Positions 30,477-32,162 of a DNA stretch of 64,000 nucleotides are shown piece after piece. Position numbers and translations under genes: made by a program. The notes beneath the pieces are model-generated. The model was not told the DNA's origin and ran no database searches. It was given only the letters and a program-made list of their open reading frames with translations. Numbering within the stretch: position 1 is the stretch's first letter; every line of letters starts with the position of its first letter. Origin of the DNA: a virus (Duplodnaviria; Heunggongvirae; Uroviricota; Caudoviricetes); the IMG/VR virus record IMGVR_UViG_2721755676_000001; one strand, given 5' to 3'.

Positions 30477-32162
30477 ATGAATACAGCCCTTTCCATCATC
30501 GACGATGCCAGCTCAAACACTGCTATCGATTATCGTCAGGAAATGAACGTTATCCACGAAATTGTGGCCGAGTGCGAGAAAGAGATCGCCTTCATGTATC
30601 AGGTTCACAACTTCGTTTATGGCGACGAACGCCACAACATGATTAATCGCCTGCTGAAACTAAACCATCGACCAGATGAAGATCGCTCGCGTTTAAATCG
30701 AGGTTGGTTGGATAAAGTCGATCTGGAATGGGTGAAACAGAATATTTGGGCCGAGTACTGGAGGAAGGTCACGGACATGACTAACGTTTTGCTGATCATG
30801 CCAGCTTCCCGTCGAGATGAGTGGCGCGAGCAGTTTATAGAGGGCAAACAGGAAGTCATCAAAACTGACAGAACCGGCTACCAGATGAAGGTTAAAGAGT
30901 TCGTTGGTGTACCGGAGTTCAAAGCAGAAACGGTCATACCCACGATACTTAATTTGCTGAATGACAGGCACAAATATCTCTCTGAGCGCGTGTATGGCTT
31001 GTTTAAGGCGCTGAGTCCTGTGCACAAGACAAATAAGACAAATGGTTTCAGCGAGCGGCTGATAATCGCTGACTGCATTTCTGATTTCTGGCGGGACAGC
31101 GTTAGCGTGAACTATCGCAAAGAGGACTACATCGACGATCTGCGTGTCTTGCTTCATTTCTTCGCGCACAAAGAATTTATTACCATCAACCGCACTGCTG
31201 AGGTGCTATCAGCTGCGTATCGGGCAAACGACTGCCAGACCGGTGACTGGATGAACGTCGATGGAAATCTGATGCGCGTGAAGATGTTCAAGAACGGCAA
31301 CGTTCACTTTGAAATACATCCTGACGTGGCCTGGAAGTTGAATGAGGTGCTGGCTTACAGTATGCCTGCTGCAATCCCCGCGCCATGCCGAACTGCGCCA
31401 AAAACACGGGCACCAAAGCAGTTCGGTTTAATCCAGAAGACGATCTCCGTGCCGGTTCGCACTGCGCTTCGTGACGGGCGATTGAGCAAAGACAAAGGTG
31501 TATGGTACTTCTCTGATTCAGCTCTCCAGAAGTCGCAGGTGGAAGAGCTTGAGCGCACACTGAGCTTCATTGGCGGCGTGCAGGAGAAAAAGCACTGGCA
31601 GTTCCCGTATGACATCGGCCATACGCTAAATACGATTGTGGCTACCGGTTTAATACCGGATACAAAATCACACCAGTTCTACCCTACCCCACGCTTGATT
31701 GCTGAGTACGTTGCAAGAGCCACTGAATTGAAGCCTGGTGAGAAGCTGTTGGAGCCTCAAGCCGGACGTGGGGATCTTCTGGCCTATATTGACGCCGATC
31801 TGGAAGATGTTACCTGCATAGAAATCGCACCTCTCTTCGCTGATATCCTGCGTGGAAAAGGGTATACGAACACGATTTGCTGCGACTTCATAAAGTGGTC
31901 TGAGGACAACGCAGGTTATCAGTTCGACAAAATCGTTATGAACCCGCCGTACTCGCTTGGTCGTCATAGAGAGCACACGCTGGCTGCGCTGGGGCATCTG
32001 AAAGTCGGCGGGCGTCTTGTAGCAGTATTGCCGGGCACTGCGCCAATACTGGACTGGATGACGATGGATAATTACGTTTATGCCAGAGGGAAGTCGTTTA
32101 CCAACGAGTTTGAAGACACAGGGATCACAGTCAGCGTATACGTTTTCAAACGCGTTAAATGA
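30477..32162 (+). CDS. Two-domain protein: unknown N-terminal about 390 aa plus C-terminal N6-adenine (amino) methyltransferase domain
   Basis: FYPTP, LEPQAGRGDLL (motif I-like) and VMNPPYS (motif IV). Confidence 0.65.
   Translation: MNTALSIIDDASSNTAIDYRQEMNVIHEIVAECEKEIAFMYQVHNFVYGDERHNMINRLLKLNHRPDEDRSRLNRGWLDKVDLEWVKQNIWAEYWRKVTDMTNVLLIMPASRRDEWREQFIEGKQEVIKTDRTGYQMKVKEFVGVPEFKAETVIPTILNLLNDRHKYLSERVYGLFKALSPVHKTNKTNGFSERLIIADCISDFWRDSVSVNYRKEDYIDDLRVLLHFFAHKEFITINRTAEVLSAAYRANDCQTGDWMNVDGNLMRVKMFKNGNVHFEIHPDVAWKLNEVLAYSMPAAIPAPCRTAPKTRAPKQFGLIQKTISVPVRTALRDGRLSKDKGVWYFSDSALQKSQVEELERTLSFIGGVQEKKHWQFPYDIGHTLNTIVATGLIPDTKSHQFYPTPRLIAEYVARATELKPGEKLLEPQAGRGDLLAYIDADLEDVTCIEIAPLFADILRGKGYTNTICCDFIKWSEDNAGYQFDKIVMNPPYSLGRHREHTLAALGHLKVGGRLVAVLPGTAPILDWMTMDNYVYARGKSFTNEFEDTGITVSVYVFKRVK

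Follow-up and report, generated by a model that had tools for sequence, protein, structure and literature searches.

The gene at nucleotides 30477–32162 of the 64,000-nucleotide stretch of DNA analysed here (the window) encodes a protein of 561 amino acids in which methyltransferase motifs at the C-terminus are preceded by a large N-terminal region. This arrangement raises the questions of what the N-terminal region contributes and which role such an enzyme plays for the element that carries it. The DNA of the window belongs to an SSU5-like phage-plasmid of E. coli. The initial annotation had described an adenine methyltransferase domain fused to an unknown N-terminal region, which is confirmed in its essentials, and had proposed orphan anti-restriction methylation, an interpretation that is partly supported by the present analysis.

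The gene is real and has already been catalogued and annotated in RefSeq, Pfam and PHROGs, and its catalytic part is ordinary. Its counterpart on the E. coli plasmid NZ_CP022167.1 (99.9% nucleotide identity) carries the RefSeq annotation 'DUF4942 domain-containing protein', RefSeq plasmid proteins are 99.8% identical to the product, and SSU5_095 (gp095 of Salmonella phage SSU5, 'DNA methyltransferase') shares 91.8% amino-acid identity with it. PHROG 6263 ('DNA methyltransferase') matches the protein from end to end (E = 4e-298). The DUF4942 profile (PF13708) matches with 72.4 bits against a gathering cut-off of 25 bits, pairing amino acids 140–295 with profile positions 35–187 of 190, and all 22 of the 22 aligned relatives match this profile as well. 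The N-terminal region, previously described as unknown, is thus a catalogued one (DUF4942/PF13708, PHROG 6263), for which no likeness to a solved structure was found. The N- and C-terminal halves are under equally strong constraint: measured against SSU5, dN/dS is 0.088 for the whole gene, 0.087 for amino acids 1–395 and 0.090 for amino acids 396–561. No functional study of any DUF4942/PF13708 member was found in the accessible literature, where DUF4942 receives four mentions, all in passing, and the literature yielded nothing functional on the methylation of SSU5 or pHCM2.

Domain architecture and conservation

The features of the gene and its product, all on the + strand, are as follows.

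30477–32162, +: complete coding sequence of the 561-residue DUF4942–methyltransferase, with ATG start and stop codon (open reading frame list)
30534–30842, +: N-terminal helical region, amino acids 20–122 (AlphaFold2 secondary structure; conservation over 141 members)
30894–31361, +: DUF4942 (PF13708) core, amino acids 140–295 (Pfam match; conservation)
31377–31442, +: basic Pro/Lys/Arg-rich linker, amino acids 301–322 (charge in the family alignment; pLDDT and secondary structure)
31443–31661, +: small alpha/beta domain directly before the catalytic domain, amino acids 323–395 (AlphaFold2)
31662–32159, +: SAM-dependent N6-adenine methyltransferase catalytic domain, amino acids 396–561 (motif order X, I, II, III, IV)
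31677–31691, +: motif X, FYPTP, amino acids 401–405 (direct translation)
31749–31775, +: motif I, LEPQAGRGD, SAM-binding loop, amino acids 425–433 (direct translation)
31941–31955, +: motif IV, NPPYS, catalytic adenine-binding loop, amino acids 489–493 (direct translation)

The FYPTP, LEPQAGRGDLL and NPPYS motifs had been located only near the C-terminus, and translation indeed puts all of them in the last 161 residues. Their order (X, I, IV) and form (F-x-T-P, a G-x-G loop and NPPY) are those of the gamma class, and the domain has a class I Rossmann-like methyltransferase fold. At least 95% of the 141 members keep Q400 and T404 around motif X, E426, P427, A429, G430 and G432 in motif I and N489, P490 and P491 in motif IV, while Y402 and P403 are kept in 85–95%. 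The sequence alignment with M.TaqI spans motif X, motif I ('LEPACAHGP' in M.TaqI) and NPPY. The domain is an intact, selected gamma-type NPPY methyltransferase domain.

With N6_Mtase (PF02384) the 561-residue protein reaches 13.7 bits, where the cut-off is 20.4, and it misses every Pfam methyltransferase threshold, that of PF07669 (Eco57I) included; weak N6_Mtase matches occur in 19 of 22 relatives, the commonest weak match among them (best E = 7.9e-06). PADLOC models for type II and IIG methyltransferases and for mad2 match, those for type II and mad2 at amino acids 394–523. The structural neighbours (Z level in parentheses) are M.TaqI (17.6), KsgA (17.2), M.BseCI (17.1) and ErmE (16.8), followed by CamA (16.3), type I HsdM subunits (16.3–16.7) and MmeI (15.4). 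The RNA m6A enzymes METTL5, KsgA and Erm are among the top neighbours, at a Z level equal to that of the DNA enzymes. Motif X in the form QFYPTP, placed immediately ahead of motif I, is typical of HsdM/M.TaqI-type DNA enzymes, and DNA is the probable substrate on the basis of motif X and the genomic context.

The enzyme shares the motif order X, I, II, III, IV with gamma-class enzymes such as M.TaqI, M.BseCI, CamA and HsdM (PF02384). These possess a C-terminal target-recognition domain or a separate HsdS, whereas the present chain stops at amino acid 561, right after the last predicted strand of the catalytic sheet (amino acids 551–559 in the AlphaFold2 secondary structure). No hsdS-like gene adjoins the 561-residue gene that could provide a separate S subunit. 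Its additional module is instead the 395-residue N-terminal region, which is structurally unlike the recognition domains of the gamma class.

This region was modelled alone on 16 relatives with AlphaFold2, which gave a confident model (pLDDT 80.3, pTM 0.73). It begins with long helices at amino acids 15–62 and 83–122, the conserved part of which (83–121) carries W95, T102, M108 and W116; in most relatives the Pfam match to DUF4942 starts at about amino acids 80–100. A mixed alpha/beta DUF4942 core follows at amino acids 123–300 of the model, then the linker (301–322), with a net charge of +5 (family median +4), and the small alpha/beta domain, composed of helices 325–333, 352–364 and 381–390 and strands 335–337, 342–344, 368–370 and 373–375. 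PHROG 9133, a profile of 1259 positions, matches amino acids 328–560 (E = 4.8e-50) and so has the small alpha/beta and methyltransferase domains in common with the protein. A beta-hairpin (strands 124–130 and 136–142; amino acids ~122–142, window 30840–30905) is an insertion of the SSU5-like lineage which splits the Pfam DUF4942 match; its position is a gap in most of the 141 aligned family members. It is also what sets this direct member apart within the DUF4942/PHROG 6263 family, of which SSU5 gp095 is an example.

In the alignment of 141 relatives (median identity to the query 32%), conservation of the DUF4942 core equals that of the catalytic domain, with mean top-residue fractions of 0.49 and 0.52 and entropies of 2.01 and 2.08 bits, respectively. 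The helices and core contain W95, T102, W116, R164, S180, H183, T185, N186, D221, R223, W258, D262, G263, G274, H277 and N289, each kept in at least 95% of the relatives, and E170, R194, E279, H281 and R305 are kept in 85–95%. The N-terminal module resembles no solved structure and no known target-recognition domain; a match of the latter kind, named at the outset as the finding that would speak against the initial interpretation, was looked for and no resemblance was seen. Approximately 70% of the protein is a strongly conserved module without a structural relative. In enzymes whose specificities diversify, the recognition domain normally varies. Since DUF4942 is conserved to the same degree as the catalytic domain across relatives that are ~32% identical, the family probably shares one fixed target, which could be a single motif, a DNA structure or a relaxed context, and does not diversify in specificity. 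More broadly, the conservation pattern suggests that either the whole family has one fixed target or the module does something other than read a sequence.

Comparison with other enzyme types sets the protein apart from several of them. Type IIG/IIL enzymes (MmeI, Eco57I) combine an N-terminal PD-(D/E)xK nuclease with a C-terminal target-recognition domain, neither of which is detectable here, and no other endonuclease domain was found at the N-terminus. Nor does the protein have the beta-class motif order with DPPY as motif IV; it has NPPY after motifs X and I. M.EcoGIX and M.BceJIII are single-strand-specific orphan m6A enzymes of plasmids that protect incoming DNA from restriction, and M.EcoGIX belongs to the beta family with DPPY (PMC7736820). 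They lack DUF4942 and offer a functional analogy for the role proposed below and for a target that may be relaxed. Kinship with M.EcoGIX or with the non-specific Hia5 enzymes was considered and rejected, both being DPPY enzymes of other classes.

A distant but detectable similarity links the catalytic domain to YdcA of the IncF leading region, with 31% identity over amino acids 400–517 (118 residues). YdcA, sited by ssb and psiA, is likewise a partner-less methyltransferase on a mobile element, and differs in having only 187 residues and no DUF4942 module. On the IncF plasmid LC744487.1 (3506–5477), ydcA is preceded by ydbA, which encodes a 453-residue DUF3560 protein annotated as 'hydrolase'; this conserved-looking pair lies upstream of ssb/psiA. 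The idea that ydbA and ydcA form a split version of the 561-residue protein was discarded: YdbA is a DUF3560 protein unrelated to the N-terminal region, and hhalign gave a probability of 0.4% against the N-terminal profile.

Distribution of the family and genomic context

An exhaustive HMMER search over 1.84 billion cluster representatives with amino acids 1–395 as the query returned 607 clusters (50% identity) at E ≤ 1e-3, of which 414 reach E ≤ 1e-10. In the best 150 of these 607 clusters, the full-length matches have about 490–590 residues, with one of 701, and a constant position of the N-terminal match; the remaining matches are short partial sequences. The 561-residue protein conforms to this plan of an N-terminal DUF4942 followed by a C-terminal methyltransferase in about 510–580 residues. 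Judging from these matches, DUF4942 plus methyltransferase is how members of a large catalogued family are regularly built, and not a novel or one-off fusion. No other DUF4942 fusion was present among ten length outliers. Representatives of 330–415 residues hold DUF4942 alone, and they are probably truncations rather than genuine N-terminal-only forms because the two that could be placed sit at or near contig ends. A second profile search, with the N-terminal alignment against a set of 5.8 billion proteins, recovered the same family and nothing else, and a scan of IMG/VR returned only close SSU5-like relatives.

Full-length relatives with ~31–39% identity occur on large conjugative plasmids, the one inspected being an IncHI2 plasmid, and in temperate phages of Aeromonas, Pseudomonas, Vibrio and Marinomonas; others are found in Variovorax and enterobacterial prophages. 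In a tblastn search of PLSDB, 2134 plasmids had a match over at least 80% of the protein; those sampled from this set comprise SSU5-like phage-plasmids and large plasmids, one of the latter being an IncHI2 multiresistance plasmid. At the nucleotide level, 250 of the 5426 complete E. coli genomes contain the gene, at 246 places on plasmids and nine on chromosomes, and near-identical copies (99.9%) sit on E. coli plasmids of 107–120 kb.

Three further features of the window, again on the + strand, bear on the context of the gene.

6–3023, +: complete type I HsdR (HSDR_N, ResIII/SWI2_SNF2, T1R_D3-like)
25929–26522, +: 197-residue phage Dam-family N6-adenine methyltransferase, NPPY at amino acids 76–79 (Pfam, NCBIfam, PHROG, PADLOC)
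30353–30368, +: terminator-like GC hairpin, then ATTTTT (consensus scan and sequence read)

The neighbourhood matches the DNA-metabolism block of SSU5, in which nrdA, nrdB, thymidylate synthase, dihydrofolate reductase (DHFR), a 3'-5' exonuclease, the Dam-family enzyme, RNase HI and a TerB-like protein are followed by the 561-residue gene. The separate Dam-like methyltransferase noticed in the initial annotation is confirmed as a member of the phage Dam family by two curated thresholds, PF05869 (131.6 bits, cut-off 28.1) and TIGR01712, 'phage N-6-adenine-methyltransferase' (113.2 bits, cut-off 97.05); it also matches PHROG 111 and the PADLOC orphan MTase models. The hairpin at 30353–30368 lies between an upstream 188-residue open reading frame and the methyltransferase gene, which may therefore have its own promoter in the 108-nucleotide gap; such terminator-like sites are no more numerous in the consensus scan than in shuffled sequences.

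Elsewhere the gene keeps other company. A relative on an IncHI2 plasmid lies near Dam and repHI2, one in an Aeromonas phage directly after Ant, and one in a Variovorax prophage adjoins a PF01555 methyltransferase. In an Enterobacterales prophage the relative has lambda-P-like replication genes on one side and a C5 methyltransferase on the other, and a further PF01555 enzyme is close by; on a large plasmid it stands beside D12 Dam, ParB and umuDC. The neighbours are thus wholly different across the six contexts examined, all of which are replication or early regions of mobile elements. Given these differing neighbours, the frequent proximity of other orphan methyltransferases and the absence of a recognizable nuclease partner beside the family member in any of the six contexts, the 561-residue enzyme is an orphan (solitary) methyltransferase. 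In the window, the open reading frames scanned within a few kilobases on either side include several hypothetical ones and gave no nuclease, PADLOC or Pfam restriction match.

The earlier statement that there is no cognate nuclease nearby is supported for the adjacent genes, yet the element is not free of nucleases, as it encodes the type I HsdR listed above. In the 99.9%-identical reference plasmid NZ_CP022167.1, hsdM, hsdS and a DUF4268 gene precede hsdR, just before the point corresponding to the start of the window. The hsdR gene belongs to an independent hsdMSR cassette, 27 kb from the 561-residue gene and with its own methylase, and the phage-plasmid carries its own type I restriction–modification cassette.

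Proposed function and competing explanations

We favour, with a little better than even confidence, an orphan N6-adenine DNA methyltransferase in which DUF4942 supplies DNA binding and which methylates the element in advance against restriction. From the motifs and the fold, SAM would bind to E426-P-x-A-G-x-G432 of motif I, the acidic residue E449 of motif II and D470/F471 of motif III, with motif X (F401-Y-P-T-P405) covering its methionine end, and a flipped adenine would be methylated in the N489-P-P-Y492 pocket in the manner of M.TaqI and HsdM-type enzymes. Because the chain has no C-terminal recognition domain and the N-terminal ~395 residues are its only other conserved part, these most likely provide DNA binding and the choice of target. 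The context suggests that the DNA of the element would be methylated before packaging or transfer, together with the action of the Dam-family enzyme, and would then resist restriction in the next host. This anti-restriction role is a reasonable inference from the context and draws on the protection established for orphan methyltransferases of other phage and plasmid families (PMC11541004; PMC7736820).

In a more far-reaching form of this proposal, to which we assign a low probability, DUF4942 would be a hitherto unrecognized N-terminal substrate-selection module with a fold absent from the PDB and one unusual target fixed throughout the family, such as near-nonspecific adenine methylation or a DNA structure (single-stranded or replicating DNA). 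If this were true, SSU5 phage-plasmids, IncHI2 resistance plasmids and many temperate phages would have a broad-spectrum anti-restriction device in common. A version in which DUF4942 has a second catalytic activity is less likely than the selection module.

Three other explanations deserve consideration. A DNA adenine methyltransferase may serve regulation or replication (replication timing, packaging or the lysis–lysogeny switch) instead of protection, as the orphan enzymes Dam and CcrM have regulatory roles. The position of the gene within a block with nrdAB, thyA, DHFR, exonuclease and RNase HI, and in prophages between the late genes and those for the repressor or replication, would suit such a role, and the fixed target implied by the conserved N-terminal module, in the face of very different host restriction repertoires, is more what one would expect of a housekeeping epigenetic mark than of an enzyme in an arms race. 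We nevertheless regard this role as rather unlikely: the family resides on unrelated replicons (SSU5 phage-plasmids, IncHI2 plasmids, lambdoid and other temperate phages) that have no common replication or packaging machinery for a dedicated regulator to act on, and its frequent clustering with orphan methyltransferases of different classes is the pattern expected of stacked anti-restriction. If the substrate were instead RNA (m6A in rRNA or tRNA) or protein, the N-terminal module would dock on a conserved host macromolecule. The equal structural closeness of METTL5, KsgA and Erm is compatible with this, but Q-F-Y-P-T-P as motif X just ahead of motif I is a signature of DNA enzymes of the HsdM/M.TaqI type, weak matches are most often to the N6_Mtase DNA-methylase model (19 of 22), the PADLOC type II and IIG DNA methyltransferase models match and the neighbours are repeatedly DNA methyltransferases and replication genes, which together make a non-DNA substrate very improbable.

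The remaining explanation, which we consider improbable, concerns DUF4942 itself, which may have a second enzymatic activity, such as that of a metal-dependent nuclease or hydrolase. The protein would then be bifunctional, like the fused restriction–modification enzymes of type IIG/IIL. Polar residues of the kind found in active sites are kept in at least 85–95% of the 141 relatives, in a beta-hairpin plus helix (D262-G263, H277, E279, H281, N289) and in a loop (S180, H183, T185, N186), and this invariant His/Asp/Glu/Asn cluster could equally mark a catalytic site. Read by eye, the D262...E279-x-H281 spacing loosely recalls PD-(D/E)xK and the hairpin–helix a beta-beta-alpha-metal finger, and some phage records label a homologue 'RE endonuclease'. 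No tool result favours a nuclease reading of D262/H277/E279/H281/N289, which was retained solely as this low-probability rival.

An orphan methyltransferase on a phage-plasmid is expected biology, and the residual value of the present case lies in how common the family is. The methylated motif, once found, would fill a gap in the methylome annotation of Enterobacteriaceae. Should the target be relaxed, the enzyme could account for the passage of these elements across restriction barriers and might itself be of use.

Other features of the phage-plasmid

Several observations were made elsewhere in the window. Downstream of hsdR, an insertion at 3246–5515 (open reading frame 3902–5425, + strand) lies beside an IS911 remnant region. 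An IS91-family Y2 transposase (Y2_Tnp plus Zn_Tnp_IS91; 9407–10606, - strand) adjoins a Rep3/RepB-type replication initiator (7792–9006, - strand). On the + strand, a metallophosphoesterase gene (11795–12880) is followed by that of an SMC/AAA_23 ATPase (13110–15026), the two (11795–15026) looking like an SbcCD/Mre11-Rad50-like pair.

The nucleotide-metabolism block with nrdA, nrdB, thymidylate synthase and dihydrofolate reductase occupies 16412–23085. Its DHFR (22609–23085) is termed 'trimethoprim-resistant DfrA51' by RefSeq on the matching plasmid, yet looks like a phage housekeeping DHFR. A 164-residue protein encoded at 28260–28754 (+ strand) belongs to PHROG 10411, has no Pfam match and ends in an unusual Cys/Ser/Gly-rich tail (...GGGCDTSSSSSYSGSCCD).

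At 33420–36898, the phage-plasmid itself carries apbC (33607–34707, - strand) and metG (34736–36898, + strand), housekeeping genes of host type, which adjoin an IS1 transposase fragment. A chromosome junction or island edge at this site (33.6–36.9 kb) was considered and rejected, the same arrangement being present with 100% identity on 113-kb plasmids; over at least 80% of the query it was found in 15 E. coli genomes, and all of those listed are plasmids.
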